Below, one piece after another: positions 23,676 through 40,717 of a stretch of DNA of 64,000 bases. Made by a program: the position numbers and the translations under genes. The DNA lies in assembly GCA_963710755.1 (NCBI GenBank), contig CAVQBK010000006.1, forward strand, positions 64,001 through 128,000. Reading direction: 5' to 3'. Under the pieces are notes generated by a model that saw nothing but the letters and a program-made list of their open reading frames with translations, was not told the origin of the DNA and made no database searches. The DNA is from an uncultured bacterium. GTDB lineage: Bacteria > Oederibacteriota > JAAXVQ01 > JAUVAV01. Position 1 is the first letter of the stretch. The number at the start of each line of letters is the position of its first letter.

Positions 23676-23826
23676 AACTTCCCTTTCCCATGAATCTAAA
23701 TAGGTTAAATAGGCTAAATAATATGCGACATATATACCACGGCAGGCCTTTGGCTGCAATAATGAATTGGTAGGAGGACAATGGGGGTACAGGGTGATGA
23801 CGGCTGGTTAACCAGGACTTTTCCGG

Positions 23827-23864
23827 TTGTCGCAGGGGCGAAAGATCATTAGCCCCTGCGACAA
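23827..23864. repeat. REP-like inverted repeat
   Basis: TTGTCGCAGGGG-N14-CCCCTGCGACAA, perfect 12-bp arms. Confidence 0.65.
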
Positions 23865-23961
23865 ATGCAGGATGATTTCGGCAAGGTGCAGCTAGTAGTG
23901 ACAACTAAAAGTTTTTATAAAGAGAACTTGGCACCAAGCCTTGTAACTAAAGTGAACCCAA

Positions 23962-24318
23962 TTAGAAAGACAGGGTTATCTGAGCATCCTGAATTTCGCT
24001 CATATAGGTGGTCGCGCCTACCAATTCCACACCTTCTCTTAAATCCTCTTTTTTTATACCCTTCACTTCCAAAGCTAATTCGCACAAATATATTTTTCCC
24101 TTCAAATCCAGGACTGCTTGATACAATTCCAGAATATCGGGCATGCCTTTGACATCTATTTTCTCAAGTGCCCCTTTCTTCAAGCTTTCCGATGCGGAAA
24201 CACTGAAAAACAAGATCACGTCGTTCCCCAAAGCCGCTGCCGAAGAACCTAAAATCAAGGTTGCATAAAGACTCTTCGACTCTGTACTGTTACACACTAT
24301 GGTGGTTTTTGTAGCCAT
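23962..24318 (-). CDS. DsrE/DsrF/DrsH-like family protein
   Basis: AAALG..V.LFF, IYLCELAL and VGA..Y...ITLSF motifs. Confidence 0.8.
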   Translation of the reverse strand: MATKTTIVCNSTESKSLYATLILGSSAAALGNDVILFFSVSASESLKKGALEKIDVKGMPDILELYQAVLDLKGKIYLCELALEVKGIKKEDLREGVELVGATTYMSEIQDAQITLSF

Positions 24319-24488
24319 ACAGCTCCTTCCTTAATCTTTTTATCGACAAGTCATCCGCTATGAGTATCGTCAGGTTGGCTTTCCACCCCAAGTAGCATTG
24401 TGATTGAGATTCATGACGCACGCTCTTCGCCCCTGCCTTATCGGCATTACCTGATTATCCTGGATTATTTCGCTTTGTGGCACAATTT

Positions 24489-24709
24489 TTGGTCGCCCGA
24501 GTCACTATTGACACCTTTGGCCATTTCAGACCTTGCTTAATATCCAAGAATCATTTCCCAATTATTTAATTATTATCGGATGGCTTTTATAGGGATTGAA
24601 TGAGATGAATATTTTGATGATTTTCGGGTACCCATAAAGGGCACCCTACCGTGGAAGGATAGTTGATGCGTCCATTTTTTCAGGGGAACTCTACTCCGGC
24701 CCCCATCAC
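24489..24709. repeat. Dispersed repeat family B, copy 1
   Basis: Close match to 37425-37692; partial matches at 38717-38817 and 40433-40466. Confidence 0.85.
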
Positions 24710-24914
24710 CATACTAATGGCGGTCTGTTCATTTTTAGCCGCGATCAAAACAGTTACACGCACGGCCATCCTCTTTCATGGAATGGCGTTTCGGGAAAAT
24801 GATCGTCGCAAAACCAGCCTTGCAGGCGGCATGGTCTTTAACAACAATGGTGGATATTAAAATAACGGGTTTAATTTTCCAAGGTGAAAGATGAATCACC
24901 TTTTCCCCGCACTG

Positions 24915-25223
24915 TTAACAACAGTTCGGATTTCGGCGGCCGGCCCCGTTTTTTTTCTTCGACGAGCAGCCGCACGTCGGCGCAGTACCCTTTAACGCCC
25001 CCTGGATCATTGCAGCCGCGCAGCCTACGCCGGTGGCCACTTGAATGGCGTCTGCGGGGCAATTACGCTGGCAGGCGCCGCATTCCATGCAACGCTGAAG
25101 GGCCTGGATGCCGGCCTTGTGTCCCATCATGGTAAAAACCGCATGTGGACAAACATCCACGCACATGCCGCATCCCGTGCATTTTTCCTTGTCCAGCCTC
25201 AAAGTCCCGCTTTGATAGGTCAT
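24915..25223 (-). CDS. hgcB: Mercury methylation ferredoxin HgcB
   Basis: Two CxxCxxCxxxC motifs including CMECGAC, GVGCA and C-terminal CC; ATG overlaps the hgcA TAA (TAATG). Confidence 0.93.
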   Translation of the reverse strand: MTYQSGTLRLDKEKCTGCGMCVDVCPHAVFTMMGHKAGIQALQRCMECGACQRNCPADAIQVATGVGCAAAMIQGALKGTAPTCGCSSKKKNGAGRRNPNCC

Positions 25224-26185
25224 TAAAAAAACCTCCCCACGCCAACATAAATCCAGAGCGCCACCGCCAACCCGGCAACGCTGATGATGACCGGCAGCAT
25301 CCTGGACATCTCTTTTTTCACGCCATTGACCGAGGTATAGGTGGTGGAACCGGTAAAATTTAAAGCCAGATAGGCCGAAACAGCAACAACTGACAGGGCC
25401 AGAGCCGCCCAGATCATCGCCGGCAAGGAAACCAGCATGACAGCCGCCAATAAGGCGAGGAAGGCCCAAACCATGCCCTTGATGGACAGCCATTTCCCAG
25501 GCAGCCAATCGTGGCAAATCGGAACCATGACAGGTGTTGACAATCCAATGGTGAAAAATACCATTCCTGCCCGTACCCCTGCAGCCAAGCTGATGCCAAC
25601 GGCTATGCCTAGCAAAGGAAAAAGTGAGGGAATAAGCTCCATAGGAATGACCGTCATTCTTTCGGGCAGCCGGAAGGTTACCCGCCTCATTTCCGGGGTG
25701 GCCTTTCCGGTATCAAGGAAAGCGGGTAAATCAGCCGCACGCACCGGGCCGTAAACCACCGTGAACCCCGTCTTTTTTCTGACCAAATGTGCCGCCACGC
25801 CCGGCGCGCCAAGCTGGGGAACGATCAACCGGCGGTGATTCACAAAGGTCTTCAGCCCATGCCGGGAAACCCGCTTGGCCAATTCGTCGGTTCCAAAGGT
25901 TCCTTTACCCGCAGCACACCAAACATTGATGCCTTTGGTATCTATCACCAATATCCAGGCGTCGCGGCCCGTCAAAACCGACCGCAATTTATCGAAGCTC
26001 ATCCTGTAATTTGCTGAAACCAGCACCGGCGATTGCGCCCCCGGATTTCCCACCCGGTACATACCCGGCGTGACCATGGCATGCATCCGCCCAATGCCCC
26101 AGCGGTAACCCCAATGCCGCAGCCGGTCACGCCATGTCAACATGGTGCCTATTTTATCATTATCGATTGTATGGGATATTTCCAT
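25223..26185 (-). CDS. hgcA: Mercury methylation corrinoid protein HgcA
   Basis: Cap helix GINVWCAAGKGTFG, PQLGAPG and GPVRA.D motifs; C-terminal TM helices ending LNFTGSTTYTS..GVKKEM. Confidence 0.95.
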   Translation of the reverse strand: MEISHTIDNDKIGTMLTWRDRLRHWGYRWGIGRMHAMVTPGMYRVGNPGAQSPVLVSANYRMSFDKLRSVLTGRDAWILVIDTKGINVWCAAGKGTFGTDELAKRVSRHGLKTFVNHRRLIVPQLGAPGVAAHLVRKKTGFTVVYGPVRAADLPAFLDTGKATPEMRRVTFRLPERMTVIPMELIPSLFPLLGIAVGISLAAGVRAGMVFFTIGLSTPVMVPICHDWLPGKWLSIKGMVWAFLALLAAVMLVSLPAMIWAALALSVVAVSAYLALNFTGSTTYTSVNGVKKEMSRMLPVIISVAGLAVALWIYVGVGRFF

Positions 26186-26280
26186 TTTAAGCCGCTCCTG
26201 ATCCCTTTTACGCCCTCATTCATGGCTTGCCGTGATTTACAATCCGGTGCTATGCTCTCTAAATACGCAGATTGGTCTTT

Positions 26281-26607
26281 TCATACACCCAAGTCGGTTA
26301 ACTGCGCTCTTGGTTTCTTCTTTATCCGGCAACATCCCATTACGATTCTTATGGCCTTTACGTTGACCAGTGCATCCGTCACTTTTTTATGGCCCGAGGT
26401 TATGATGCGCGAAATGGTAGACTGGTGAATTTTCATTTTCCTCGCGATCTGCGCTTGTTCCAGACCTTCCAGGTGGGCAAGCCGCAGGGCTTCAAACTCA
26501 TCCAAGGTTAAAATGACCCCTTCCATCTCATCAAGGGATTTACAATTCGGCCGGAAACAACGCTCTTCCGGCTGGCAGGCTACCCAACGCATTTACTTTG
26601 GCCGCAT
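26281..26607 (-). CDS. DUF134 HTH regulator with in-frame TAA at codon 5 (possible restart at 26592)
   Basis: LTLDEFEALRL..LEGLEQ.QIA..M.I and KKV.DALV motifs; the start reads ATG CGG CCA AAG TAA ATG. Confidence 0.8.
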
Positions 26608-26622
26608 CTTTGCTCCGTTTTT

Positions 26623-26663
26623 TGCATATATATGCATTATCTCGCGGGCATAAAAGTTGTCAA
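26623..26663 (-). promoter_or_regulatory. Sigma70-type promoter with adjacent palindromic operator candidate
   Basis: TTGACA (26663-26658), N16, GATAAT (26641-26636); perfect palindrome TGCATATATATGCA at 26623-26636. Confidence 0.6.
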
Positions 26664-26756
26664 GAAAATCGAAATATTCCTGCAACCATATCACTGGTTT
26701 TCGTTGTAGGATATTCAGGGACGTAGTTTGATAATTAGATATTGCTTTTCTCAGTG

Positions 26757-26940
26757 TTTCCGGGACGGCGTCAAATTGTCAAGTTAAGCTGATTTTGTTT
26801 TACATAATTTTCTCCCAGCCGTACCGCAGTGCCGGCTCCTTGCTTGCTAATTTCCAAATATCCGCCAAGTTCTGCACAACTAAATCCGAGTTCTCTGTCT
26901 GATAAAGGCAGCCTAACAACTGCCCTAGCTACAGGCGGGT
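26757..26940 (-). pseudogene. RAYT (REP-associated tyrosine transposase) C-terminal HTH remnant
   Basis: Translates RELGFSCAELGGYLEISKQGAGTAVRLGE..*, followed by GACGCCGTCCC; family assignment is by motif recognition. Confidence 0.55.
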
Positions 26941-27088
26941 GTCAGGTGAATACCGTTTCTGTACATATAATAGTTATTAAATTATAGGTGTCCCCCTATT
27001 CCCAGACTTTTTCTTTTTTCATTTCACTTTTTTACAAAAAAAGGACATGCCTATAGTTTCAAGTTAGACATGTCCCCTAATCTTTTCT

Positions 27089-27274
27089 CACAGCAGCTGC
27101 ACCCACTGCGGCAGCTGCGGCACGGTCTGCCCCATGAGCCTGAATGTCCGCCGGGCCCTTGAACAAGGACGATTGGAAAAGGAGTCCGAGTGCATCCTCT
27201 GCGGCAATTGTGCGGACCATTGCCCTCAGGCTGCCATCCGCTTCCGTTTCGGCGCGGGCCGGTTGGAGGGATGA
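27089..27274 (+). pseudogene. 5'-truncated 4Fe-4S dicluster protein fragment
   Basis: CTHCGSCGTVCPM...ECILCGNCADHCPQ..*; no start codon; cut beside GTCCCC at 27072. Confidence 0.75.
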
Positions 27275-27280
27275 ATCTCA

Positions 27281-27545
27281 GGGGACGTTGGTGCTTAGCG
27301 CGCATTAGCTCGTTACACTTTCTAATCGTGATAAAACCCGATTAATACCGGAGGTGCGTACTCCAAGGTAACTAGCTATTTCCGCCCCCGATGATCCTAA
27401 TTCTTTTTGCCCCCGAGTGGCTACTCTGGCGCGGACTTCACTTACAGGTCCACGTCTACTCCCTAGCTAATTGGGACGCCTGGAGCCTCCCGGTTTTGCT
27501 TTACTTCTTCCTCTATCCGGAATATTTCACCTACTCTTTTCGAGT
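27281..27545 (-). pseudogene. Second RAYT C-terminal remnant
   Basis: GSRRGPVSEVRARVATRGQKELGSSGAEIASYLGVRTSGINR*, followed by AACGTCCCC. Confidence 0.65.
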
Positions 27546-27564
27546 AAAGCGGTGGCTGGCGCCG

Positions 27565-27714
27565 ATCTCTCAGGAAAAGCTGGCAGAATTGGCAGGTGTT
27601 CATAGGAATTATATTGGCCTAATCGAGAGAGCCGAATTAGATCCTGCTATATCTTATATAGATAAAATCGCCAAAGCATTGAAAATCAAAATTAGTGATT
27701 TAATGGAAAGGTAG
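27565..27714 (+). pseudogene. XRE/HTH_3 regulator fragment (C-protein-like)
   Basis: ISQEKLAELAGVHRNYIGLIER..IAKAL.I; the genuine N-terminus is missing. Confidence 0.65.
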
Positions 27715-27885
27715 ATATTTAACTAACTCTTCTCAGGGGAAAATTTCTTAAATCATCAAAAAGTAATTAAGTAAGCCCGTCCCCTTTGACGTCAATTGGA
27801 GTTTTTGCTGGAAGGCGATATCGCCTTGACCTCGCCTGCCAACAGCGGCTTGTCAGGCGGGCTGATGATTTATTTTTAAAAACTC

Positions 27886-28239
27886 GATTTCCGGGGATAC
27901 CTACCAAAATGACACTATCTTGTGAGCTTATATTCTAACTTAAAAATCGACCCTCTATCAGGCCTATGTTGTTAACACCAACGTTTTGGCTGGGGTCCTG
28001 TTTTCTTTCGGTTTATTTTTACGGTTATCTTTAGTTCAATATTTTTATAAATTCCCGGGCTCCCAAAGAACAGCCTGTTTTTTCATGACTCCCAATGATT
28101 CCTGGCATTTTTTTTAACCTGTCCTTATAAAAACCTTGATATTTATTCAGACCGATTAATCAGGATTTTCATTCACTTTAGTCTCTAAAAATCTCAGGTT
28201 TAAAAAACACCTTCATTTAGGCAGGTGTCCCCGGAATTC
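27886..28239. mobile_element. MITE/REPIN-like element A, copy 1
   Basis: Direct copy of 28651-29006; ~27-bp terminal inverted repeats with a TTCCGGGGA core. Confidence 0.85.
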
Positions 28240-28256
28240 ATTGGATTTAACGCGGC

Positions 28257-28562
28257 TCATTTTCCGGTTCTTTTGCTGAGTATAAACTTCTGAGAAGGGC
28301 TTAATGCCTTATCCTTCCGGTGAGCGCAGCCAAACCAACAGCAAGGGCGGCGCATCCCTTCCTTAAGTTCCGAGACCACCCTGTCAACATGCTCCCGCCT
28401 CTTCTCCGGGGTTTTAACGGAGATGGTCCAACAAATCCACTCGTTGCGGGAAAGCGGCGTGAGATCTTCCCAAACCGCCAGCGCTTTAGGATCAGACGAC
28501 AATGCTTTACGCAAGTCAGCCGGCAGCTCATGCACGACGCCACTGGATATTTTTCTACTCAT
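28257..28562 (-). CDS. YdeI/OmpD-associated family protein
   Basis: ELPADLRKAL..WEDLTPLSRNEWICW..RRPCCW motif. Confidence 0.85.
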   Translation of the reverse strand: MSRKISSGVVHELPADLRKALSSDPKALAVWEDLTPLSRNEWICWTISVKTPEKRREHVDRVVSELKEGMRRPCCWFGCAHRKDKALSPSQKFILSKRTGK

Positions 28563-28650
28563 AAATTTATTTTACCTCAATGGATGGAAATTTACTTTTT
28601 CATAAAAAGTGTAGCACCGGCTTTTTCCAGCCGTCAACCGCTGATTTCGG

Positions 28651-29006
28651 GATTTCCGGGGACAGCTACCTAAATGACACTATCTTGTGAGCTTTTATTC
28701 TAAATTGATAAATCGACCCTCTATCAGGCCTATGTTGTTAACACCAACGTTTTGGCTGGGGTCCTGTTTTCTTTCGGTTTATTTTTACGGTTATCTTTAG
28801 TTCAATATTTTTCTATAAATTCCCGATCTCCCAAAGGACGACCTGTTTTTTCATGACTCCCAATGATTCATGGCATTTTTTTAACCTGTCCTTAGGAAAA
28901 CGTTGATATTTATTCAGACAGATTAATTAGGACTTTCATTTACTTTAGTCTCTAAAAATCTCAGGTTTACAAAACACCTTCATTTAGGTAGGTGTCCCCG
29001 GAATTC
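28651..29006. mobile_element. MITE/REPIN-like element A, copy 2
   Basis: TIRs GATTTCCGGGGACAGCTACCTAAATGA / TCATTTAGGTAGGTGTCCCCGGAATTC; the interior encodes a decayed RAYT tail HEKTGRPLGDREFIEK on the minus strand. Confidence 0.85.
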
Positions 29007-29027
29007 CCGGAATTAGCCTGCTTTCTA

Positions 29028-30485
29028 TTACTTCAAATCCCCTGCTATTGCCGCGAATTGGCCTAAAGCTGATTCCAAATCTTCGACAATCTCCAATGCC
29101 AGGATATCAGGATCAGGCAGATTGGCTGCATCTTCCAGAGAGTCGTCTTTTAGCCAGAATATATCGAGATTAACCTTATCTCTTTTCATTAGTTCGTCGT
29201 ATTCGAATGCCTTGAATCGCTCGGATTCTTTGCGTTTGTTTCTGTTTTTGGGATTAAAGCACTTAACAAAATCATCAAGATCGGTGCGTTTTAGGCAATT
29301 TTCTTTGAGGGTAAAATGCATATTGGTGCGAAGATCATAGATCCATAGTTTATTGGTCCATGGTTTTTCACTGGCAGGTTTGCGGTCAAAGAACAGGACA
29401 TTTGCCTTTACGCCCTGGGCATAAAAAATGCCGGTTGGCAGTCGTAAAAGCGTATGGACGTCTGCCTGTTTTAACAGCGCCCGGCGAATTGTTTCGCCTG
29501 CACCACCTTCGAAAAGTACATTATCCGGCAACACCACAGCCGCTTTACCGTGTTGTTCTAAAATTGTAAAGATATGCTGAAGGAAATTAAGTTGTTTATT
29601 ACTGGTACTGGCCCAGAAATCCTGGCGATTAATAACCAGCGAATCTTTCTCTGCTTCCCCCTCGGCATTAATAATGGTCACACTGCTCTTTTTACCAAAA
29701 GGAGGATTAGCCAGGACCATTTTATACTCGCCATGTTTATCAGCTAAGGCATCACGGGTTTGGACAGGCAACTCTTCGTCAGTATCCCCGCCAATACCAT
29801 GGAGAAGCATATTCATCGCACATAGACGGGTTACCCCATCAACCAATTCAAAACCAAACAAAGTTCCTGATCTAAGTTTCTTTTTTTGAGCCCGATCCAT
29901 ATCTTTATAATGATGCATCAAGTAATCATGAGCAGCCAACAAAAAGCCGCCCGTACCGCAGGCAGGATCACAGATAGTCAAGCCCGGTTCCGGTGCCATA
30001 GAATCCACAATCGCTTTGATAAGCGCGCGCGGCGTAAAATATTGACCGGCCCCGCCTTTGACATCCGCAGCATTCTTCTCTAACAAGCCCTCGTAGGCAT
30101 CGCCTTTCACATCGGCCTCAATGGTTGTCCATTGCTCCTTGTCGATCAAATCAACAATCAGACGCCGCAGCTTAGCCGGGTCCTGGATCTTGTTTTGGGC
30201 TTTGCGAAAAATAAGGCCCAACATGCCGTTACGTTTACCTAATTCTTCAAGTGTGTGCCGGTAATGGTTCTCCAGATCATCACCATCGAGCTTGACCAGC
30301 ACATCCCAGCCAAAGCCTTTGGGAATCTTGGACTCCTTTTTAAACGGCGGCTTACTCTGCTCATCAGCCATTTTGAGAAACAGCAGATAAGTCAATTGTT
30401 CCACATAATCACCGTATGACAACCCGTCATCCCGGAGGACATTACAATAATTCCATAATTTTTGTACTAATTGTGAAGGGGACAT
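29028..30485 (-). CDS. hsdM: Type I R-M methyltransferase subunit M
   Basis: GQYFTPR, DPACGTGGF and NPPF motifs. Confidence 0.96.
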   Translation of the reverse strand: MSPSQLVQKLWNYCNVLRDDGLSYGDYVEQLTYLLFLKMADEQSKPPFKKESKIPKGFGWDVLVKLDGDDLENHYRHTLEELGKRNGMLGLIFRKAQNKIQDPAKLRRLIVDLIDKEQWTTIEADVKGDAYEGLLEKNAADVKGGAGQYFTPRALIKAIVDSMAPEPGLTICDPACGTGGFLLAAHDYLMHHYKDMDRAQKKKLRSGTLFGFELVDGVTRLCAMNMLLHGIGGDTDEELPVQTRDALADKHGEYKMVLANPPFGKKSSVTIINAEGEAEKDSLVINRQDFWASTSNKQLNFLQHIFTILEQHGKAAVVLPDNVLFEGGAGETIRRALLKQADVHTLLRLPTGIFYAQGVKANVLFFDRKPASEKPWTNKLWIYDLRTNMHFTLKENCLKRTDLDDFVKCFNPKNRNKRKESERFKAFEYDELMKRDKVNLDIFWLKDDSLEDAANLPDPDILALEIVEDLESALGQFAAIAGDLK

Positions 30486-30500
30486 TATTACTCCTAAATA

Positions 30501-31055
30501 TCAATTGATTTTTATACCAAATGCCGCATAAGCCTCTTTCGTATAATAATTCAGACTTGTTTTTGGTTTGTTGGTTAGATTAAATTGAACAACTGCATCC
30601 TTCAATGGTTCCTTTTTAAAAGGGATGTGAATAGCCTTCACCGATTTATTTTCGATCCTAGCTTTTAGTGCTGCGGGCCACTTATATGACAAAGCTGAAG
30701 GATTCAAAATATAATCAGAATCAATATACACTACAACGAGGGGTAAACCACATGTATCAACTGCATACTCAATTTCAAAGGGAACCCAATCTTTGTCATT
30801 TTTGGTTGTATCACCAATAATAAGTATCATGTTTTTTGAATTTTTTAACCTATCCTTCAATCGCTCTCTTAAAGTAGCTTTTAAACTACTATCTCTTACA
30901 GCACAAGTTTTTTCATGGCTATCAATTATTGAAAAATCATCATCTTCTTTAGCAGTCCAAGCTTTTATCAAATTGTAATATTTAATGTCCGAATCAATTG
31001 GTATATTTGTCCCGTCAGCATGAAATGAGATATAAGTACCATTTCTGTACGCCAT
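30501..31055 (-). CDS. thsB: Thoeris ThsB-like TIR domain protein
   Basis: YISF..D, RL.NSK..IL.IG..T and WVPFEIEYA (catalytic Glu) motifs. Confidence 0.85.
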   Translation of the reverse strand: MAYRNGTYISFHADGTNIPIDSDIKYYNLIKAWTAKEDDDFSIIDSHEKTCAVRDSSLKATLRERLKDRLKNSKNMILIIGDTTKNDKDWVPFEIEYAVDTCGLPLVVVYIDSDYILNPSALSYKWPAALKARIENKSVKAIHIPFKKEPLKDAVVQFNLTNKPKTSLNYYTKEAYAAFGIKIN

Positions 31056-31891
31056 TAGTGCCTCCAGTATTCTAATATTTTTGTCAAATCAACATCTTCA
31101 AATACAGAATCATGTAAGATAATATTGATTTTGCTGGTAATTTCATTCTTTTTAGTTTCATTTAATATCGATATCAATATCAATTCAATTAATCGCATTG
31201 GCGGGAGTCCGGTTTTAGCAAGTCCAGAACCTATCAGAGGAATACTTACTTGTTGGCCATTACAATCACAACGAACTTTTTCCCACAATCCGCATAAACC
31301 CGTTAATATTAAATCCGGAGTTGTATAAGCTACATAATTTGCATTTGTTTTAGTTAATGCAAAAAGAAAATACTTTTTTTTCCCGAAATCGCCAACGGCT
31401 GTTGTTCCAATTTTATATTTGTTATGCTTGCCTTCTGAACGCGAAACGGTTTCGGAGTCTACCCCCCTCAAGGAATCTCTAATCATATCGTCGAATATTT
31501 GTGATTTACCACCTAGTGTTTTATTTATAAACATTCCATGTAAAGATTTTACGGAGACAGGTTTGCCGATTTCACTATCAAAGTATTCATTCACACTTAT
31601 TGCCAAGCATTCATCTTCTTCAAACAGGTCACCAAATTTAATCTTTATTTTCGTATTGGTGTTTTTAAGCTTTATTTCAATCTGTTTTTTCGGATAAACA
31701 TTCCATATAGCAATTACACAAGCAACTATTGAAAACATTAATAATTTCCAGCTCCCCTTTACATCCCATTCGGTGAATGCCACAATCGGTTCAATAACTG
31801 ACCAAAGCAGTGCAACTGATGATATCAATAAAAAGCCGGCCTTCTTATAATCACGTTTAATGCCTAAAAATACATTCCTAAGCATCTTCAT
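31055..31891 (-). CDS. thsA: Thoeris type II ThsA-like effector (2 TM + macro domain)
   Basis: Two N-terminal TM helices; IKFGDLF..AISVNEYFD..SLHG, YKIGT and IPLIGSG motifs; coupled to the TIR gene. Confidence 0.82.
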   Translation of the reverse strand: MKMLRNVFLGIKRDYKKAGFLLISSVALLWSVIEPIVAFTEWDVKGSWKLLMFSIVACVIAIWNVYPKKQIEIKLKNTNTKIKIKFGDLFEEDECLAISVNEYFDSEIGKPVSVKSLHGMFINKTLGGKSQIFDDMIRDSLRGVDSETVSRSEGKHNKYKIGTTAVGDFGKKKYFLFALTKTNANYVAYTTPDLILTGLCGLWEKVRCDCNGQQVSIPLIGSGLAKTGLPPMRLIELILISILNETKKNEITSKINIILHDSVFEDVDLTKILEYWRH

Positions 31892-33327
31892 TTCACCAAC
31901 TCCCCTTCAAAGGCTTTTTTAAGAATTGCCTGCCGTAGCCGTTCGGCTCGCTTGAGATTTGCATCGACAAGCGTTTCCAGCTCTTCAACCACACTTAATC
32001 GGCGTTCGACTTCGTCGACAATAAGCTTTTGTTCAGCTAAAGACGGCAGTGGAATAGGTAGATTCTTTATTTCTTCTAAGCTAAAATTAGCTCTAGCCAC
32101 ATCAACTTTTCTTAAATTAATTTGTTTCTGTGCATTGTATGACAAAATCCAAATTAGCGAATAACGGTTAAGAATCGTTTTTTCGATCAATCTGATCACA
32201 GCAACTGCTTGATTAACATTTCCATTTTCAATTTCAGGCCCAGCAATTGCTGCTCTCCCGATCGAGGCTCCTACAATATTTAGAAGAACATCGCCATTGA
32301 GTAATATTGATTTATTTTCCTTTTCATTGAATTTATAAGGAAGACGTGAAATCGTACTCAAATCTAAATATCCCCAACGGACATTTTCGCTTCTAATGAA
32401 GACAATGCCTTCCTCTGCATACTCAAATCCCTGCCAACGTGGTGACGAACCTTTTGTAATCAAACTACTTATTTGTTCTATAATTCCCCACGTCCACCCT
32501 TCCGACAACTCTGGCAGGTCGGTTGTATCGGGCACTTTGGGTTCGACATACTTTTTATTCTTTCCGGTTTTCTTCTGCTGCTCTTCAAAAGCTTTTTTGC
32601 GTTCTATCAGGATTCGTTTTAGCAATTCTTCGCCTGTTTCGTACGTCCTGCCTTCTTTCTTAGCCAGTTCTGCTTCTGTCGGCACCAGCTTCCCTTCGCA
32701 GGCTGCTTTGAGGACTGAGGCGCGGTAGCGTTTGAGTTTGGTCTGAATACTCTTTAGGGCTGCCACCCCGGCATCCAGACGAGTGAATTGCTTTTCGATT
32801 TCTTCGACAATGCGGTGTTGTTCTGGGAGAGGTGGAACAGGCATAGGAATAGTACTTAAGTTTTTTCTAGAAATTCTTTTTCGTGTCGAGCCAGATTGAC
32901 GAGATTCAATTACGGTTCTAAATGGCAATGCGTTCACAATGTGTGATAACCATTTGTTATTAATTTTTGTTTTATTAGGCCGAACTATACATACATCAAC
33001 TACAGTTACTGCTTCTTTTTCATCACCTGGAAAAACACATGATCTGCCTAACGGTTCTGGCATCCGAGCAATTAATACATCACCAGGTTTAATAAATGTA
33101 CACCTTAACTCTTCAGCCTTACCTCTAGTCAAAAACCTTGATGATTTATCTCTATAAGTTCCATCACCAATATCCGCCAACTGTATTAATCTTACATCAC
33201 CATTGGGATCTTGGTCTTTAGATTCAACCCAATCACCATCACAAAAAACACCATCATCTCCAATTATTTCTGGCAATGAGCTCCAACTCCAATTTTCAGG
33301 CAATTTATATTCACCAAAATTTTTCAC
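31888..33327 (-). CDS. hsdS: Type I R-M specificity subunit S
   Basis: Two TRDs with LPENW, PPLPEQ.RIV and LRQAILKKAFEGELV conserved regions. Confidence 0.95.
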   Translation of the reverse strand: MKNFGEYKLPENWSWSSLPEIIGDDGVFCDGDWVESKDQDPNGDVRLIQLADIGDGTYRDKSSRFLTRGKAEELRCTFIKPGDVLIARMPEPLGRSCVFPGDEKEAVTVVDVCIVRPNKTKINNKWLSHIVNALPFRTVIESRQSGSTRKRISRKNLSTIPMPVPPLPEQHRIVEEIEKQFTRLDAGVAALKSIQTKLKRYRASVLKAACEGKLVPTEAELAKKEGRTYETGEELLKRILIERKKAFEEQQKKTGKNKKYVEPKVPDTTDLPELSEGWTWGIIEQISSLITKGSSPRWQGFEYAEEGIVFIRSENVRWGYLDLSTISRLPYKFNEKENKSILLNGDVLLNIVGASIGRAAIAGPEIENGNVNQAVAVIRLIEKTILNRYSLIWILSYNAQKQINLRKVDVARANFSLEEIKNLPIPLPSLAEQKLIVDEVERRLSVVEELETLVDANLKRAERLRQAILKKAFEGELVK

Positions 33328-33365
33328 GCCACCAGCACCTCATTCAATTCTTCCAATAAACTATC
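33324..33365 (-). repeat. Duplicate of the hsdR 3' end
   Basis: 33324-33358 matches 34450-34484 with one mismatch (encodes LEELNEVLVA*). Confidence 0.85.
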
Positions 33366-33606
33366 TTATTTTTCCCAAAACCAGCTTGAAACCCTGACCA
33401 TTTTGTTAACATCAACAAACATGAATGTTCAAGGAAACCACAGGTTTCCCTGACGCAAACGCCAATGCGTTTTGCTTCTCTTCCTATCTTCGTCGGGGTG
33501 CTTCGCCCCCAAGCCCCCGCCTCATATTCTAGGATGAGGCATGGTATTTCTTGATCATGTTGTTGAAACCAACACGATTATCATTTTATAATAATTTGAC
33601 ATTGGT

Positions 33607-34440
33607 CTATTTACTCTCTCTGTTTTCTTTTTTTCCTTCGAGCTTTTTTATGCCCTGGTGATCGCTTAAGAGTCTCATCTGTTGAATTGCTATCCGGTTT
33701 AGTTTCACAAGTCTCTCGCTCTGCGGCAACCCCTCGCTGATAAAATGCGCATTGAGATTTTCCAGATTTGATAGACATACTAACTGAGACATGTCTGCGT
33801 CATCACGGATATTCCCCTGCTTAGCCGGATTCACATCGCGCCATTGTTTGGCAGTTTTTCCAAACAAAGCAATATTAAGCACATCTGCTTCAGAGGCATA
33901 TAGTTGATTAATTTGCCGTTTTGAAAGCTCATCAGGAATCAGATTCCCTTTAATCGCATCCGTATGGATACGGTAATTGATTTTTGCCAAATTTCTTTTG
34001 ATATCCCACCCGAGTTGCTTTCGTTCCTCCTCTTTTAAACGTTGGAATTCCTTAATTAGATACAGTTTGAATTCCGGAGAAATCCACGAGGCAAATTCAA
34101 ACGCAATATCCTTATGTGCGTATGTTCCGCCGTATCTGCCTGCTTTTGCCACAATTCCCCTGGAATGTGTCTTTTCTACCCATTGTTTTACGGATAGAAC
34201 AAACCGGTTTAAACCTGCCTGGTTTTTAATTCCCTCGAATTCGGGGGAATTAAAATCAGGGTTATACATTTCTTCCCAAATACCTAAAAACTCTATCGTG
34301 TTTTTATTCCTAAGCCATTTTTCAATCAGCGCAAGACCGTTCTCAACATCCTTGACCATATCCGTAAGCGAAATAAAATCCTCTTCATTTTTAGAAATAA
34401 TGGTTATTTCTTTCCCTTGGACATCAATTTTTCCAGTCAT
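33607..34440 (-). CDS. KilA-N domain DNA-binding protein
   Basis: DFISLTD, WLRNKNTIEFLGIWE and GRYGGTYAHKDIAFEFASW motifs. Confidence 0.9.
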   Translation of the reverse strand: MTGKIDVQGKEITIISKNEEDFISLTDMVKDVENGLALIEKWLRNKNTIEFLGIWEEMYNPDFNSPEFEGIKNQAGLNRFVLSVKQWVEKTHSRGIVAKAGRYGGTYAHKDIAFEFASWISPEFKLYLIKEFQRLKEEERKQLGWDIKRNLAKINYRIHTDAIKGNLIPDELSKRQINQLYASEADVLNIALFGKTAKQWRDVNPAKQGNIRDDADMSQLVCLSNLENLNAHFISEGLPQSERLVKLNRIAIQQMRLLSDHQGIKKLEGKKENRESK

Positions 34441-34449
34441 TTTCTCTCC

Positions 34450-37241
34450 TCACGCCACTAGCACCTCATTCAATTCTTCCAATATCCTATCCAATCCATC
34501 ACCAAACACCTGATGGGCTTTGCCTAATCCGCCTTGCTGGCTGAATGGTGCATAATCAAAGTCATCGGTCTCGATAGTCAACGTTGTTGCGATATGCTCT
34601 TTGATCAGGTTTAACCATGCTAGCTGTTCTTGGGTAAAGGTTACTCCTTCTTTGGCTTTGTCCATCATCCACTCGTTAAACCGCTCGGTGACGGACTCGG
34701 CAAAGGGTCGAAGTATTGGCTGCCGGGCTAATGAAAAGCGTATGATAGAAACCAGATCAGCAAAGCGTCCTACCTGGGATTTGCCGTTTACTTTTTCAGG
34801 CATAATGATGCCAAAAGCATTCCAGATATTTTCTTCGTTCCAGGTAGTATTGCTTTCTTTCAGCTTTGCTTCCAGTTCTTTTAACATGGTTTCTGTAAGC
34901 CGCTGGCTATAGGGCCGGCTGTACAGAATTTGCAAGGCCGTGATTTCTTCTTTGTGCTCTTCGATATATTCTTTGAAGGAGCTGATCATATTCTCTGCTT
35001 TTTCTCTGGCTGCTGCGTCAAAGCCTTGCTCCAATACGACATCAGCAGTTACTGTATCAATGGTTTGTTCTAACTGCTTTTTCATATTAATCAGCTTGTC
35101 CCTGAGCACAGGATCATCAAAAGCTTTGCAAGCTTCTGCTATTAATGCCTGCTTGGCTTTTTCGTAATCTTCATCACCAACTTCAGATCTGGAAGCATCT
35201 TTTTTTCCGGTTGCTTTCTCGACGATGCTATCCGATTCCAGGGCATTTAATAAATCCCCTGATAATTGCGCCAGACTCTTTCCTTTGGATACCTGATGCA
35301 AGTCTTCCCGCTGTTTGGGACTTATTTCCCGATCCAGTTTGGCCAGCCTTCCGGCTAATGATAGCAAAGTATCTTCATCGCGTTTGCCAAAGGCCACACC
35401 CAACAAAAGCTTATCAAAGGCTACACTGCGTTTTCTTTCCAATGGTCTGGAATCGGTTTTGTCACTCTCACAAACACCTATGGCATCAACAATATAAAAC
35501 TGGGTTTTAGCTCTGGCATCCGCACCACTGACCGCCTGCAATTCGGTTGATGATACCACACGGGTTCCGCGGCCTTTCATTTGTTCAAAGTACACCCGGC
35601 TTTTGACATCACGCATAAAGATCAAGACTTCCAGGGGTTTGATATCTGTGCCGGTGGCAATCATATCTACCGTCACAGCAATTCGTAATTGCGGTGATGT
35701 CCGAAATTCCTGGATAAGGTGTTCTGATTTTTCATAACGTCCGGTTTCAGGATTATAGGTTTTGTAGGTGATCTTTTTGCAAAAGTCATTGCCTTTGCCA
35801 AAAACTTCGCGACAGATCTGTACAATATCTTCAGCATGGGAATCATCTTTGGCAAAAATCAAAGTCTTGGGCAGCATGGTCCGATGCGGGAAAAGCTCGG
35901 TAAACACCGCCTCTTTGTAGGCTTGCAAAATGGTTCGGATTTGAGATGGCACCACCACTGAGCGATCCACTTCTTTTTCCGAATAAGCCAAGTCCTCGTC
36001 CAGTTGTTCCCAGCGCCTGGAGCGATCGAGCTTGCTCCGCTTATCAACATAAAAACCTTTTTCAACCGAACCGCCTTGCTCGGTTACCTGGGTTTTAATA
36101 CGATAGACCTCATAACCGACATTAACCCCATCCGCTACGGCACGCTCATGGCTGTATTCGGTTACCAAATTTTGATTAAAATAACCAATGGTCTGCCTGG
36201 ACGGTGTGGCTGTTAAGCCAACAATGAAGGCGTCAAAATATTCCAGCACCTGTCGCCATAGGTTATAGATTGAGCGATGGCATTCATCAGTAATAATAAA
36301 ATCAAAGGTTTCAATCGGGATTTCCGGATTATAGACTACTTCCTTGGGCCGGTTATCAGCAATGCTGATTTCAGCAGCAGAGATATCATCCAGGTCCTCT
36401 TCCAGCTCTTCTCCACGAAGCATGGAATATAGCCGCTGGATAGTACATATGGTCACCTTACAGACTTTATCCAGTTGATTGGACTTCACATGCTGTACAT
36501 TATAAAGTTCGGTAAATTTACGGTTGTTGTCGGGGGTGACATATAAATCAAACTCGCCTTTAGCCTGTTTGCCCAGATTGGAACGATCTACCAGAAATAA
36601 GATCCGTGTAGCATTAGCGTGCTTGATTAAGCGATAGACTAATGAACAGGCTGTATAGGTCTTGCCGCTACCTGTGGCCATTTGTAGTAAAGCTTTAGGG
36701 TGGTTATATTTAAAGGATTGTTCCAGATTTTTAATGGCATCTATCTGGCATTGACGCATGCCTGTTGTGTTTAAAGGATGTTTATCAAGCATTTGGTTGA
36801 GTAGATTACGAAGGGTAGTATCTTCCGTCAGCCATTCTACCAATGTTTCCGGCCGGTGAAAGCTATATACTCGTCTGGAACGGGCATCCCGATCTCTTTC
36901 ATCACGAAAAAAGGTCTCTACACCGGTTGACTCGTAAAAAAAAGGCATTTGCCCTAAGTTCTTCAGAAAATCGGGTAATTGTTTGCCGTAATAGGCGGAT
37001 TGTTCTGCCACCCCGGATAGGGTTTGACCTACTTTTTTGGCTTCAATGACACCCACAGGCTTACGGTCAACGATGAGCAGATAATCGCATACGCCGGACG
37101 CCAACGGTACTTCACGGAGTACAATGCCCAAGAGGCACCAAGATTCATGTCTTTGTAATCCTGAACCTGCCATCCAGCCTGGGTTAGCATCTTATCGATT
37201 TGTTCTCTAGCTTCCTGCTCTGGTTGTTGGTTAGGCGTCAT
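34450..37241 (-). pseudogene. hsdR: Type I R-M restriction subunit R with a 1-nt frameshift near 37131
   Basis: IEAK nuclease, ATGSGKT, DECH and QMKGRG motifs; the N-terminus MTPNQQPEQEAREQID lies in a different frame (37029..37268 ORF). Confidence 0.88.
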
Positions 37242-37367
37242 TAGTTGTTCTTTCGTTTGTTTTGTCACTGCTTATTTATGAAGATAATACAAAAAATAAC
37301 TTCCGCATATTATATCGAGTAGCTACTTGTTCTACTACTGCTTTTTCCCCTCCAGCAGACCAAGAAT

Positions 37368-37692
37368 TTCAGTTTTGTATTGGGGACGTGTATTGTGGAC
37401 GGGGTCAACTAACTCAACATCTGTTGGTCGCCGGAGTCACTTTGACACCTTTGGCCATTTCAGACCTTGCTCAATATCTAAGAATCATTTTCTAATTATT
37501 TAATTATTATCGGATGGTTTTTGTAGGGATTGAGTGAGATGAATATTTTTGATGATTTTCGGGTACTCATAAAGGGCACCCCTACCGTGGACGGATAGTT
37601 GATGTATCCACTTTTTGGAGAACTCCGGTTAATTGCCTTCTTGCCATCGACCCTCAACACTAAAAGTATCAAAGTACCGCCGGGCCCCATCA
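37368..37692. repeat. Dispersed repeat family B, copy 2
   Basis: Begins TTGGGGAC..GGGGTCAAC; matches 24489-24709 and 40388-40466. Confidence 0.85.
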
Positions 37693-37713
37693 TGTGAACA
37701 TTTCCACTCCAAC

Positions 37714-38621
37714 TTATTCTTCTCCGAAATAATCTGTATCAATACGTTTAATTTCGTAGGTCATTGCTGTTGCTACACCGAGACTATAATCTATCATTAG
37801 ATTTGCTAGTGTTCGACCATCAATTAAGATCACTTTAGGATCAATTGTATTTACATAATCAAGTGCATCTTCTGAAAAACGTCCAGTTGTAATAAAAACT
37901 CCTTTTTTGGCTCGTTTCCCATGTAATGCTCCAACAAATTTTTGAATTTCAGGTCGGCCGACTGTTCCTTCCCATCTTTTTGCCTGTAAATAAATAATAT
38001 CAAGCCCAAGCTTATCTTCTTTTATAATACCATCGATACCCTCATCGCTAGATTTCCCTATCGCTTTACCTGCATCACTATGGGAACCACCGTAACCCAT
38101 TGCCACCATTAGATCAACTACCAGCGTTTCAAAAAAAGAAGGCGAGTTGGACTTAACTATCGATAATATTTCAGCAGCTAATTCACTTCTTATACTACCA
38201 TATGCTTTTTGCAGCACCTCTTCAGGTGTTTCCGTGGAATGGACTTCTTCAACTTTATCTACTTCAGTTCCATTTTTACCAGCGGTGTGAAACTCAACAA
38301 ATTCAGGATATTGCTCGAGGACTTTTATATCTATTCTATCATGCCCCTAGACAGCAATTCTTGACCACGTTTGGTTATTTGAAAACAACCTCTACGGGTT
38401 GCTGCCAAAACTTTTGCCTGTATAAAATAACTCTTTGCCCAGGCAGCACGATTACCAAATTTGGTTTGTGTCCCGCTTGGCAAGCGCTCTGATATAGTTT
38501 CTTGATCAAGATTCATTTTTTCAGCAATTACTTTTCTGGCTTCTCCAATTGAATGTTCACCATTATCAGCTGCAAGTTCAAGTAGCGGTTTAAAGAAGGA
38601 CTGGAAATCAGGTACTTTCAT
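37714..38621 (-). pseudogene. mrr: Mrr-family type IV restriction endonuclease, frameshifted near 38344
   Basis: Mrr_N (NRAAWAKSYF) and Mrr_cat (DEGID..QAKRW) lie in different frames; one extra G restores RGHDRIDIKVLEQYPEF. Confidence 0.88.
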
Positions 38622-38700
38622 TTTTATTTCTCCCATTAAAGTTATTAACCGTCAACTCGACGATATACTTTTTTTAAAGTTACACTACTCCCCATTGACT

Positions 38701-38880
38701 AATGGGGGGCATTACAAATATTTTGATGATTTTCGGGTACTCATAAAGGGCACTCCTACCGTGGTCGGATAGTTGATGTGTCCACTTTTCGTAGGAAGAT
38801 CACTCCGGCCCCTATCAAAGAACGTGGCAGGCTTCTTCTTTACTATTTTTTCATTTTGTCAATATCTTAGTCCCCCATTT
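38701..38880. repeat. Family B short copy with imperfect terminal inverted repeats
   Basis: AATGGGGGGC...GTCCCCCATT ends; the interior matches copies 1 and 2. Confidence 0.7.
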
Positions 38881-38882
38881 CC

Positions 38883-39782
38883 TTACAGTGACGATCTAGC
38901 TGCAGCTCTATACGACTCAGGTTCATCTTTTATCAACTCAATTAAATAACGACGTCTATCCAGAACTTCCAACAATCCCATAATTTGTTTATCTTCTACC
39001 ACCAATTTTCCGTCCACTGGTTTCAGCTCGACCTTAGTTTTTGCGCAAAGCTGCTCAAGCTTTTTTTTATCGATGTCTTTCAATCTTTTTCTTGTACGAA
39101 TCGAGGCCAAATATCTGGCTGCCCGTGGGTGTTCTAATGCATAGGATTGAATATTTTCAAAATCAATAAAATTAATTTCTTTTTTAATTTTTATGATATT
39201 TTTAGGAACTGCCGCTTTGATTGCTTCTTGAAGTTGCCCAATAAATTCAAATCCGCTGGGCCTTAAAATATATACATTTTCTTTGTCTACAATCAAATCA
39301 AAATCCGCATCCAGTTTAAAAACATTATCCTCAATTATTTTTAAAGCATCTGATAAAAGTTTAATTAATTTATTCTTAAGAATCCCTTTAAATTGAGCTG
39401 CCCTTCTAACAGCAGTAAGACGATTTCTTTTTCTATCTATGAATCTAACAAAATAACAAAACATATCATCAGTTTCATTCAATACATTAGAATTATTTGT
39501 TAAATTATTAGCATGGTGTAATTGTTTGAACCAACTGGCATGCTCATCATTAATCGGTAAATAAACGTATTCAGCACTTCCATACTTTTCAGAGGGGTCA
39601 TATACCGCAGGTTCGGAGTCGTTCGTATTCATATTCTCCCAAGTGGTTATAGCCATTTCTTCCAAAGCTTCTTGAACACTCTTATCTGTTACAACACCAT
39701 AAATTGTTCGCCCATCTCCATCATCTTGACCAATACCAAACTCCGTAGTCACAATGTTGCTGAAGTCGAAATGCAATTTCAT
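38883..39782 (-). CDS. kwaB: Kiwa anti-phage protein KwaB (DUF4868-like)
   Basis: FKLD.DFD, FEFI and LLEVLDRRRY motifs; coupled to a TM partner. Confidence 0.8.
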   Translation of the reverse strand: MKLHFDFSNIVTTEFGIGQDDGDGRTIYGVVTDKSVQEALEEMAITTWENMNTNDSEPAVYDPSEKYGSAEYVYLPINDEHASWFKQLHHANNLTNNSNVLNETDDMFCYFVRFIDRKRNRLTAVRRAAQFKGILKNKLIKLLSDALKIIEDNVFKLDADFDLIVDKENVYILRPSGFEFIGQLQEAIKAAVPKNIIKIKKEINFIDFENIQSYALEHPRAARYLASIRTRKRLKDIDKKKLEQLCAKTKVELKPVDGKLVVEDKQIMGLLEVLDRRRYLIELIKDEPESYRAAARSSL

Positions 39783-40345
39783 TGTTTCACCTCCAAAGCT
39801 ACAGTATCGCTCAAGCGATAAACTGTTACGCTGTCGCCCTCAGTCAAATAAGAACGTTTAGTGATAAGAACCTGGCTTCCTTTCCCAGTTAATGGATTTC
39901 CATCTTGTGGCGCTCGAATTGTGAAAACACGATATTTAAAAACTGCAAAGATTAAGTTCATATAATGTAAATTTAGATGCCAAAACAAGAATAATATAAA
40001 AGCAAGTGCAGTCAATGCTGCTGAAAAATCACGCCAATTGTTGAAATCTGCAGCATAAAAAGGCAAAAGCATTGCAAATAAATAAACCAGTAAATGTTCC
40101 CGGTGATCCTCAGCTTTGCCGATTACTAACTGTTTTGTTTCATTATTTTTTTTTGCCACCAAATATCTTGCCCACAGGAACAAATTAGGCAATATTACCA
40201 ATCCAGTACAGAAACCCAAAAACCAACAATCGGGAATTAAATTGTTTCCACGGATAGCCCAAATAATGAACAAGGGTGATATGCTACTTAACACCATTAA
40301 GAATCTAGCTATTTTTAACCCTTCAACATGTTGTTTCTTGCCCAT
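39779..40345 (-). CDS. kwaA: Kiwa anti-phage membrane protein KwaA
   Basis: Four TM helices; SSISPLF, L.YL...LLP and Y.N..F....YRVF motifs; ATGA overlap with kwaB. Confidence 0.78.
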   Translation of the reverse strand: MGKKQHVEGLKIARFLMVLSSISPLFIIWAIRGNNLIPDCWFLGFCTGLVILPNLFLWARYLVAKKNNETKQLVIGKAEDHREHLLVYLFAMLLPFYAADFNNWRDFSAALTALAFILFLFWHLNLHYMNLIFAVFKYRVFTIRAPQDGNPLTGKGSQVLITKRSYLTEGDSVTVYRLSDTVALEVKQ

Positions 40346-40387
40346 TTAACTCCCCCCAACTGGTCGGCCTCTTTGGGCGTTCGGTCT

Positions 40388-40466
40388 TTCAGTGTGTATT
40401 GGGGACGGGGTCAACCAATTCAACATATGTTAGTCGCCGGAGTCACTTTGACACCTTTAGCCATTT
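40388..40466. repeat. Family B left-end copy
   Basis: TTCAGT..TATTGGGGACGGGGTCAAC..GTCGCCGGAGTCACTTTGACACCTTT matches 37368-37460. Confidence 0.8.
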
Positions 40467-40717
40467 ACACTGCTCCCCAAGGAACATGCATATTGTATAG
40501 GAACGGCATCATTGGATTAAAAGATAACAATGGTGAGCCTGCTCTTATGTTTCTATATTGAAGTAAGGCGACTTGGTTTGGCCACAATGATTTAATAAAA
40601 TGCCGTAACGGCGATGGCCCTTTATCCCTCAATGACGGTTTCACCTGATTATCCTGGATTATTTCGCTTGGTAATATTATGATGGCCGCCATTAATTTAT
40701 GAAAGCAGGGCGGGTTT

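Follow-up and report, generated by a model that had tools for sequence, protein, structure and literature searches.

We analysed a 64,000-nt stretch of DNA from an uncultured bacterium (the window; positions 64001-128000 of contig C6 of the genome G000, with positions counted within the window), and in particular its region between valS (21024-23759, minus strand) and an MFS transporter gene (40718-41905, plus strand), where blocks of genes are separated by spacers that carry the hexamer GTCCCC or its complement GGGGAC. An earlier, sequence-only reading had taken these blocks for cassettes, bounded by GTCCCC on the left and GGGGAC on the right, of a dedicated integron-like RAYT/REP system that captures and stacks them. 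Our analysis identified the hexamer as the known terminus of a known transposon family, the TIRtrons (enzymes: TIRYT, or TnpA_REP subclass 2.1), and revealed that the pair GGGGAC...GTCCCC brackets the transposon, not the cargo. The stretch that begins behind valS and extends to the MFS gene is a hot spot in which modules of horizontal origin have accumulated, with a TIRtron copy, complete, truncated or gene-less, at nearly every joint. The spacers contain genuine repeat families, intact transposase genes reside elsewhere in the genome, and three translocated modules have homology to a related genome that ends at element ends; TIRtron ends and module breakpoints are indeed linked. The region is probably, though by no means certainly, a mosaic island built by insertion sequences (IS), in which modules were placed by movement resembling that of composite transposons or translocatable units, or by recombination between element copies. 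The observation made by the sequence-only reading is confirmed and its interpretation is supported in part: the island looks transposon-built and not run by a new integron-like system.

Identity of the GTCCCC/GGGGAC motif

The hexamer shows no overall excess, neither in the window (25 sites seen, 33.1 ± 5.4 expected) nor in the genome, where its 1027 sites amount to 0.94 times the expectation under a fourth-order Markov model. Between 24319 and 40717, 10 of the 11 sites fall within the 23.6% of bases that are non-coding (binomial 4.7e-6), and a first-order Markov simulation of these non-coding segments gave a mean of 1.8 sites and reached 10 in none of 2000 runs; the sites are partly copies of one another (B1/B2 and A2/A4, see below) and correspond to about eight independent events instead of ten. 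Windows of 13.5 kb with at least 11 sites were found for 10 of the 1027 anchor sites of the genome. All positions on which the sequence-only reading relied are present: GTCCCC at 26990, 27072, 27779, 28227, 28994 and 38870, GGGGAC at 27281, 28658, 37382 and 40401, and degenerate versions near mrr and the hgcAB block (GGCCCC at ~24698 and ~37684, CGGGAC at 26761, GGGGGC at ~38703); the one coding site, at 30478, had not been used. That reading was to be abandoned if the motif proved no more frequent at block boundaries than by chance; instead we found a strong concentration at the joints, though no enrichment overall. A second cluster of hexamers lies at C3:244001-253000 of G000, together with a truncated Y1 gene, pieces identical to window positions 26969-27087 and a 207-nt gene-less element with terminal inverted repeats (TIR), and it also holds Fic, SocA/Panacea, ArsR and SdpI genes.

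The search for intact Y1_Tnp RAYT genes with the same flanks, which had been proposed as a check, yielded seven elsewhere in G000 (R1-R7, ~330 aa; PF01797, E 7e-13 to 3e-10). They form three near-identical groups, and both the HUH motif (HLH/HYH) and the catalytic Tyr motif (NRYK) are readable in all seven translations. Each of the seven elements has a 5' end of the GGGGAC(A/G) type, and five have an exact GTCCCC inverted-repeat end on the 3' side, the 3' ends of R5 and R7 being degenerate. When all GGGGAC/GTCCCC pairs at most 3 kb apart were scanned with a threshold of at least 13 of 20 complementary inner bases, eight were retained: R1, R2, R3, R4, R6, the second copy of repeat B in the window, the 207-nt gene-less element (C3:250596-250802) and one 2.3-kb candidate. 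As had been supposed, the motif is part of elements of RAYT-like Y1 (HUH) transposases, and it brackets their intact genes in G000; the proposed polarity has to be reversed, for the motif pair encloses the element in every intact copy. It is the spacers that are mobile, and the cargo is only the DNA left between them. The pattern GTCCCC...cargo...GGGGAC arises because the right end of one element is followed by the DNA between and then by the left end of the next. As for the suggestion that the enzyme is supplied in trans, the intact genes elsewhere in G000 could indeed act in this way.

Comparison with other species supports this assignment. Our sample of relatives comprised 80 loci from other species of many phyla, with 55 full copies that had sufficient flank; inverted repeats of at least 13/16 nt are present in 49 of these 55, most of them beginning with (G)GGGACG, and the expression GGGG[AT][CG] flags 33, many of the others being one G shorter. 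Di Nocera et al. 2013 (PMC3733652) name such elements TIRtrons and their enzymes TIRYTs, with the TIR motif GGGGWSAS, and Quentin et al. 2018 (PMC6006769) equate them with TnpA_REP subclass 2.1, characterised by a C-terminal Bac_DnaA_C/HTH extension. The Y1 domain with HUH and Tyr is found in the intact genes, the window holding just a 53-residue C-terminal relic. The ends of repeat B (GGGGACAG and GGGGACAC) fit the published 8-mer exactly, and the R1 end (GGGGACAT) and the R3/R4 end (GGGGACGG) are one base off. Gene-less copies with TIRs occur in the same genome, namely both copies of repeat B, the four copies of repeat A and the element at C3:250596-250802. Regarding the C-terminal domain, three of the genome's own copies (R1, R3 and R4) gave no Pfam match at E 0.01, their length of ~330 aa implies an extension, and PF08299 or PF13384 is carried by many of the 43 relatives of a relic in the window (E2, see below). 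The NCBIfam model REP_Tyr_transpos scores 70.5-77.1 bits with the genome's own transposases, under its family cut-off of 80 bits.

Module breakpoints and spacers

The sole genome of the same genus available for comparison, G001 (an assembly of 500 contigs), shares 70-86% nucleotide identity with G000 in the core genes that flank the locus. In four pieces of the array the identity rises to 91-99%, and the G001 counterparts of these pieces lie on separate contigs. The hgcAB block (24714-26691) is 97% identical to contig C226, where it adjoins an intact glycosyltransferase gene; in the window the block breaks off at 24713, a distance of 9 nt from the degenerate terminus of the first copy of repeat A (A1), whose homology to the third copy (A3) ends at 24708, and the G001 homology of the block begins at 24714. 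The ortholog of the glycosyltransferase in G000 itself (~80%) lies at C3:1109541-1110239 without adjacent hgcAB, and hgcA and hgcB are single-copy in G000; the hgcAB-DUF134 block looks like a recent horizontal transfer of mercury-methylation genes. The 4Fe-4S piece (27087-27334) is 99% identical to contig C284, where the upstream rest of the gene is present and uncut. The sequence-only reading had already noticed that this gene is cut beside the motif, and we place the cut at 27083-27087, 4 nt past an R1/R2-type 5' end at 27003-27082. The ydeI interval (28237-28648) matches contig C334 by itself, at 94% and with different neighbours on both sides, and coincides with the end of repeat B copy 1 (B1) at 28239 and the start of copy 2 (B2) at 28651. 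The fourth piece is the left part of E2 (27282-27464; 91%). Breaks of orthologous loci at unrelated positions would have counted against a role of the motif; the homology of the hgcAB, 4Fe-4S and ydeI modules to G001, where they lie on three contigs with other neighbours, stops 0-10 nt from element ends. These three modules are therefore pieces cut from different loci of a G001-like genome, with the cuts at element ends.

On the MFS side, G001 homology starts at ~40470, the inner edge of the fourth fragment of repeat A (A4), and the MFS block, being more similar to G001 than the core genes are, may itself be an exchanged block. The same MFS-proximal site holds different defence genes in the two genomes, because in G001 (C383 1-1540) a WYL-type regulator and the start of a Cas3-HD-like open reading frame (ORF) take the place of Kiwa. 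G001 gave no nucleotide match to the defence blocks of the window. Directly behind the MFS stop codon, at 41906-41925, we noted the sequence GGGGCACGGAGCC, similar to an R4-type end repeat apart from one additional base; the G001 contig stops at this point.

Both repeats of the sequence-only reading, A and B, proved to be real. Repeat A is present as one full and three partial copies in the same orientation throughout (24489-24691 matches 37424-37625 at 91%; 38717-38817; 40394-40466 matches 37388-37460 at 92%). It starts with the last ~5 codons and the end repeat of an R4/R6-type element (28/30 nt), and its right end GGCCCC lies within sequence that matches the R4 5' end repeat at 13/15 positions (read by eye). 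Repeat B (27886-28239 and 28651-29006, 93%) is 354-356 nt long, with terminal inverted repeats of 27-49 nt (GGGGACAG.../...GTGTCCCC). No further copy of A or B was found elsewhere in G000 and none in 10 family relatives, and a scan of the genome collection with the end repeat of B gave 0 matches. Two other roles for repeated sequences were considered and rejected. An attachment site in a tRNA, tmRNA or small RNA gene found no support for repeat A, as the window contains no tRNA gene and Rfam gave no credible match over 23000-42000 (2 chance-level matches only). The 37-nt duplication 24442-24478/40636-40672, considered as the attachment-site scar of an insertion of the whole 16.2-kb island, was rejected in this role after comparison with G001: its right copy is conserved upstream of the MFS gene of G001, and a simple scar of a single insertion does not fit because G001 has 170 nt to the left of this copy directly upstream of that gene.

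Further relics occupy the left half of the array. The E2 stretch 27308-27466 (minus strand) is a decayed transposase C-terminus that was recognised solely through the better-preserved G001 copy of the relic, which matches 43 proteins (best E 1.1e-24), most of them of 311-327 aa and with PF01797. These relatives match the window stretch at 62% identity (E 2.3e-12), and a profile built from them finds it with E 3.6e-11, as the sole significant match among 633 six-frame segments of 24300-41000. With the genome's own eight Y1 proteins as queries, tblastn against the window gave nothing below E 0.27 and nothing in the spacers, and phmmer of two spacer peptides against the own Y1 proteins gave nothing. 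The stretch 26774-26941 matches the transposase profile marginally (E 0.73, profile positions 284-325); we rejected it as a second transposase C-terminus in view of this E-value and of the adjoining IS481-like end at 26906-26978. The probable relic at 26761-26896 agrees with the R4 5' end repeat at 19/29 and with the R4 3' end at 17/29 positions. The earlier statement that the spacers encode decayed RAYT C-termini is consequently upheld for one solid case and not for several, and the description of the spacers as RAYT-derived is largely right, except for the IS481-like debris. The spacers consist of TIRtron copies, gene-less or truncated, and of debris from other IS, and everything between them makes up the cargo (Table 1).

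Table 1. Elements, relics and cargo modules in the region up to the MFS transporter gene (positions within the window).
Feature	Position	Strand	Remarks
37-nt copy of MFS-upstream piece 40636-40672	24442-24478		89%, core 29/30; left edge of repeat-bounded region
Repeat A copy 1 (A1), gene-less R4-type TIRtron derivative	24489-24708	-	first ~36 nt absent; right end GGCCCCC 24698-24704
hgcAB module	24714-26760	-	first ~17 codons of G001-type glycosyltransferase, hgcB-like ferredoxin, hgcA-like CdhD-domain protein, DUF134 regulator
Probable TIRtron 3' end relic	26761-26896	-	degenerate end CGGGACGGCGTCAA; weak C-terminal HTH-like frame; repeated in G001
IS481-like (rve) insertion sequence, right-end fragment	26906-26978		not RAYT-derived; rve ORF at L045:141-758
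R1/R2-type TIRtron 5' end	27003-27082	-	100% over 80 nt; truncated just before transposase ORF; ends GTCCCCTAATC
4Fe-4S dicluster protein gene, 3' fragment	27083-27275	+	5' side cut by element end
TIRtron relic E2	27281-27784	-	left end GGGGACGTTGGTG, begins GGGGACG; plus-strand HTH_3 ORF; right end GTCCCC, R3-type end repeat
Repeat B copy 1 (B1), 354-nt gene-less element	27886-28239		27-nt TIRs GGGGAT.../...GTCCCC
ydeI (OmdA-domain) module	28240-28650	-	Pfam; exactly between B1 and B2
Repeat B copy 2 (B2)	28651-29006		93% to B1; ends GGGGACAGCTACC / GGTAGGTGTCCCC; 15/20 inner bases complementary
Type I restriction-modification (hsdM, hsdS, hsdR) with embedded Thoeris (thsB, thsA) and KilA-N/PDC-S22 gene	29007-37381	-	low GC
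Repeat A copy 2 (A2), most complete	37382-37690	-	left GGGGAC + GGACGGGGTCAAC, like R4/R6 3' end; right end GGGCCCCATCA
mrr (type IV restriction), split	Mrr_cat 37714-38217, Mrr_N 38331-38636	-	profile positions 150-315 and 1-94 of 317
Repeat A copy 3 (A3), right ~100 nt	38717-38875	-	ends GGCCCC near 38812; then another GTCCCC at 38870
Kiwa	kwaB 38883-39782, kwaA 39779-40345	-	KwaB 1.2e-130, KwaA 4.4e-87
Repeat A copy 4 (A4), left 73 nt alone	40394-40466	-	28/30 nt = R4/R6 3' end (40401-40430)
MFS transporter gene and upstream region	40467-41925	+	94% to G001, above core level

Genes were assigned with Pfam and PADLOC, the check for integrases also with NCBIfam. From valS towards the MFS gene, the region contains a DsrE-like gene, the hgcB-like ferredoxin, the hgcA-like CdhD-domain protein and the DUF134 regulator (Pfam; all on the minus strand), followed by the short OmdA/YdeI gene, hsdM, thsB, thsA, hsdS, the KilA-N gene, hsdR, the split mrr, kwaB and kwaA, likewise on the minus strand. 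The 4Fe-4S 3' fragment and the HTH_3 ORF are the plus-strand exceptions between valS and MFS, and the co-orientation of intact cargo that had been remarked upon holds, all intact cargo ORFs being on the minus strand. With type I restriction-modification, Thoeris (ThsA/ThsB), PDC-S22, Mrr and Kiwa (PADLOC) clustered in a variable region of low GC (0.34-0.45 across 28-40 kb, ~0.51 in the flanks), the valS-MFS locus is a defence island: it combines unrelated defence systems, is variable and deviates in composition. Among the 99 genomes of the phylum that were searched, KwaB has a match in G000 alone and no relative in the 98 others. The split mrr, probably a pseudogene, has on either side a 74-nt direct copy of a segment of repeat A (37542-37615 and 38717-38789). 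The KilA-N/PDC-S22 gene looks as if it had been inserted between hsdR and hsdS, because it is flanked by a 58-nt duplication of the hsdR 3' end (33324-33381/34450-34507; first 42 nt 93%); Thoeris is likewise placed between hsdM and hsdS. The remainder of the window contains housekeeping genes and one IS1182 transposase. The IS1182-family element (55819-57204), whose ends (55698-55753 and the 57500-57650 region) match the ends of dozens of G001 contigs at 97-100%, is a high-copy element common to G000 and G001 and a main cause of the fragmentation of G001.

Assembly of the island

Six of the seven intact transposase genes form three co-oriented pairs (C3:1365718-1381381, C13:17846-36174 and C2:1036-11128). 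R1 and R2, 13.4 kb apart, lie around a sigma-54 regulator, Fe-S/NifU-like and other metabolic genes; R6 and R4, 16.2 kb apart, around transporters, arsenic-type genes and a protein with an eCIS core domain; R3 and R7, ~7.9 kb apart, around an IS21 and a UvrD/PD-(D/E)XK protein. Four G001 contigs match the interior of R6..R4 with 94-98% identity, and a further colinear piece does so with 81%; these matches break off 6-11 nt from the element ends, and further out the sequences differ. For the R1..R2 interior, G001 yielded weak matches only. Two co-oriented copies around cargo, as in composite transposons and translocatable units, are found in B1-ydeI-B2, in the copies of repeat A and in the R1/R2, R6/R4 and R3/R7 pairs. 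Immediately outside the left ends of R1 and R2 (C3:~1365660-1365720 and ~1380230-1380275) we observed two or three tandem partial copies of the terminus, GATTAGGGGAC-like.

According to the explanation we favour, elements would first insert into genes, or next to them, at donor loci; the segment enclosed by two copies of the same orientation would then travel to the valS-MFS region together with one or both of them and be joined to a copy already resident there, through the action of TIRYT in trans or through homologous recombination of the copies, and later deletions would wear the elements down to relics. The data fit either route of joining. The exact coincidence of repeat-unit ends with element termini, at which cargo of three donor loci is cut as well, points to the transposase; the confinement of A and B to the locus, the direct and nested arrangement of the repeats and the motif-free duplications around the KilA-N gene and the whole region point to recombination. 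A bolder version, to which we assign a low probability, is that TIRYT Y1 transposases could mobilise the DNA that separates the right end of an element from the left end of its neighbour, in which case rows of relics would act as a platform for capture and stacking. Such mobilisation of a cargo loop is conceivable because the outward-facing end repeats of neighbouring elements are complementary (89% for the arms 28213-28239 and 28651-28677) and could form an element-like stem in single-stranded DNA.

Several observations weigh against an island assembled by these elements. Repeats A and B are restricted to the locus and absent from the 10 family relatives, which is not how miniature elements that disperse behave, and they are explained equally well by transposition and by local duplication or recombination. 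Inserts flanked by direct duplications also occur where no element end is present (33324-33381/34450-34507 and 24442-24478/40636-40672), which means that much of the pattern can arise through recombination alone. For the right end of A and for E2, the match of the end repeats is weak and was partly established by eye. All breakpoints depend on a single comparison, that with G001 as sole congener in its 500 contigs, and the breakpoint evidence covers none of the defence modules, as these have no counterpart there. Two transposase copies within 10 kb were seen at only 2 of the 80 loci from other species (counted within +/-10 kb, in mostly fragmentary assemblies), and paired elements are therefore no general habit of the family. 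Finally, neither a clean empty site nor a target duplication nor an excision junction was recovered: when a clean empty site of R4 or R6 was sought in G001, the neighbours differed instead and none was found. Nor was a second copy of any cargo unit found in G000, in the 10 relatives or in metagenome contigs. The metagenome scan with the MFS protein gave 3 loci, all at most 38% identical, and a salt-marsh metagenome run (5% of words) gave low-depth contig fragments of a relative, among them one that covers part of repeat A (24539-24709) and one that begins at 27276; beyond the aligned part both continue with non-matching letters, and no joints at element ends were seen at this low depth.

An alternative that we consider unlikely, yet more credible than any other rival, holds that the elements had no role in moving the modules, which arrived otherwise, by transformation and recombination or with a lost integrative element, while TIRtrons and other IS landed later and decayed, and deletions truncated genes. 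It would account for the mixed debris of the spacers (an IS481-like end, pieces repeated elsewhere), for the low GC typical of a defence island and for the different defence genes (WYL regulator, Cas3-HD-like ORF) at the MFS-proximal spot of G001; the R1-type fragment, being 100% identical to active copies, can be read as a recent simple insertion, and the mosaic identity of colinear G000/G001 segments, 81% beside 96%, points to frequent recombinational import. Passive arrival is hard to reconcile with three modules that have three separate contexts in G001 and each end at an element end, with a ydeI module that exactly spans the interval from B to B and whose G001 neighbours are absent from the window, and with the glycosyltransferase stub, which shows that the hgcAB block was excised from a donor locus.

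Recombination without any part for the transposon is, in our view, improbable. Circular DNA composed of local sequence and cargo would have integrated by a single crossover, leaving flanking duplicates, with A, B, the hsdR 3' end and the MFS-upstream piece as scars and their nature as transposon relics incidental. All repeat pairs are indeed direct and nested, A and B are limited to the locus, and duplications lacking element ends flank the KilA-N gene and the entire region; what such insertion-duplication leaves unexplained is that repeat units end exactly at transposon termini and that cargo from three donor loci is cut at such termini. Least probable is the dedicated integron-like system with which the sequence-only reading had explained the array. 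Motif pairs do flank the blocks, an enzyme is available in trans, and complementary outward-facing ends could pair around the cargo in single-stranded DNA as an element's own ends do, but we found neither an integrase nor an attachment site nor a promoter arrangement, gene fragments are among the cargo, a REP family is lacking, the motif encloses elements in every intact copy and the 80 loci from other species provided no second example.

Relation to known systems and significance

In composite transposons and in translocatable units of the IS26 type, co-oriented copies alternate with cargo cut from other contexts, and the enzyme can act in trans. The valS-MFS arrangement may work like such an array, but with a Y1 family: it has the same alternation of co-oriented copies with relocated segments, including truncated genes. 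IS26, in contrast, has a DDE transposase and intact IS copies, whereas the enzyme here is predicted to be a single-strand Y1 transposase, most copies are decayed and no movement of a unit was seen. Integrons comprise IntI, attI, attC and Pc and carry stacked co-oriented acquired genes separated by recurring sequence. The island shares with them the stack of co-oriented acquired genes with recurring sequence between. Unlike integrons, it has no IntI, attI- or attC-type site and no Pc or promoter logic that we could find, its modules are multi-gene or fragmentary (the glycosyltransferase 5' stub, the 4Fe-4S 3' piece), and its spacers are element relics of 66-500 nt, of at least four sequence types, together with IS481-like debris; the integron-like reading is unlikely. 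That the array is free of integrase, as had been claimed, agrees with our finding of no integrase or recombinase family among the 26 + 39 ORFs scanned, although 11 of the 39 have no NCBIfam match and might include a novel enzyme.

REP/REPIN-RAYT systems were reportedly described by Nunvar 2010 and by Bertels & Rainey 2011. They resemble the elements studied here in having a related transposase and short non-autonomous repeats thought to be mobilised in trans. Bertels 2017 (PMC5581495) notes that Group 1 RAYTs are the most IS-like. What sets REP/REPIN-RAYT apart is high-copy palindromes of 20-40 nt that flank a single-copy, domesticated gene, and G000 has neither: it has seven IS-like gene copies in three near-identical groups, no high-copy palindrome family and a hexamer below its genome-wide expectation. 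The spacer elements are not REPs, and this part of the sequence-only reading has to be dropped. With TIRtrons they share the RAYT-like Y1 HUH transposase of ~330 aa, the GGGGAC-type TIRs and the gene-less TIR derivatives; the C-terminal Bac_DnaA_C/HTH domain was seen in close relatives. TIRtrons and TIRYTs are described (PMC3733652, PMC6006769) as single-gene elements and dispersed TIR repeats, whereas in G000 their relics occupy the junctions of a mosaic of 16 kb, and 8-16 kb of cargo lie within each of three transposase pairs. Among the papers listed by our literature search on RAYT, inverted repeats and cargo, none showed cargo carriage; the papers searched present TIRYTs only as single-gene elements with derived repeats.

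The island provides a concrete case in which TIRtron ends mark the breakpoints of translocated modules and co-oriented pairs bracket 8-16 kb of accessory genes, and it makes the movement of cargo by RAYT-like Y1 enzymes directly testable. Should passive arrival be the right reading, the locus would be an ordinary defence island littered with IS. The hgcAB genes, as a recently exchanged block with transposon relics at its borders and a stub of the donor gene, bear on the spread of mercury methylation. If the cargo-loop reading were true, this would be the first known cargo-carrying mode of the RAYT/TIRYT branch, here gathering defence systems and hgcAB.

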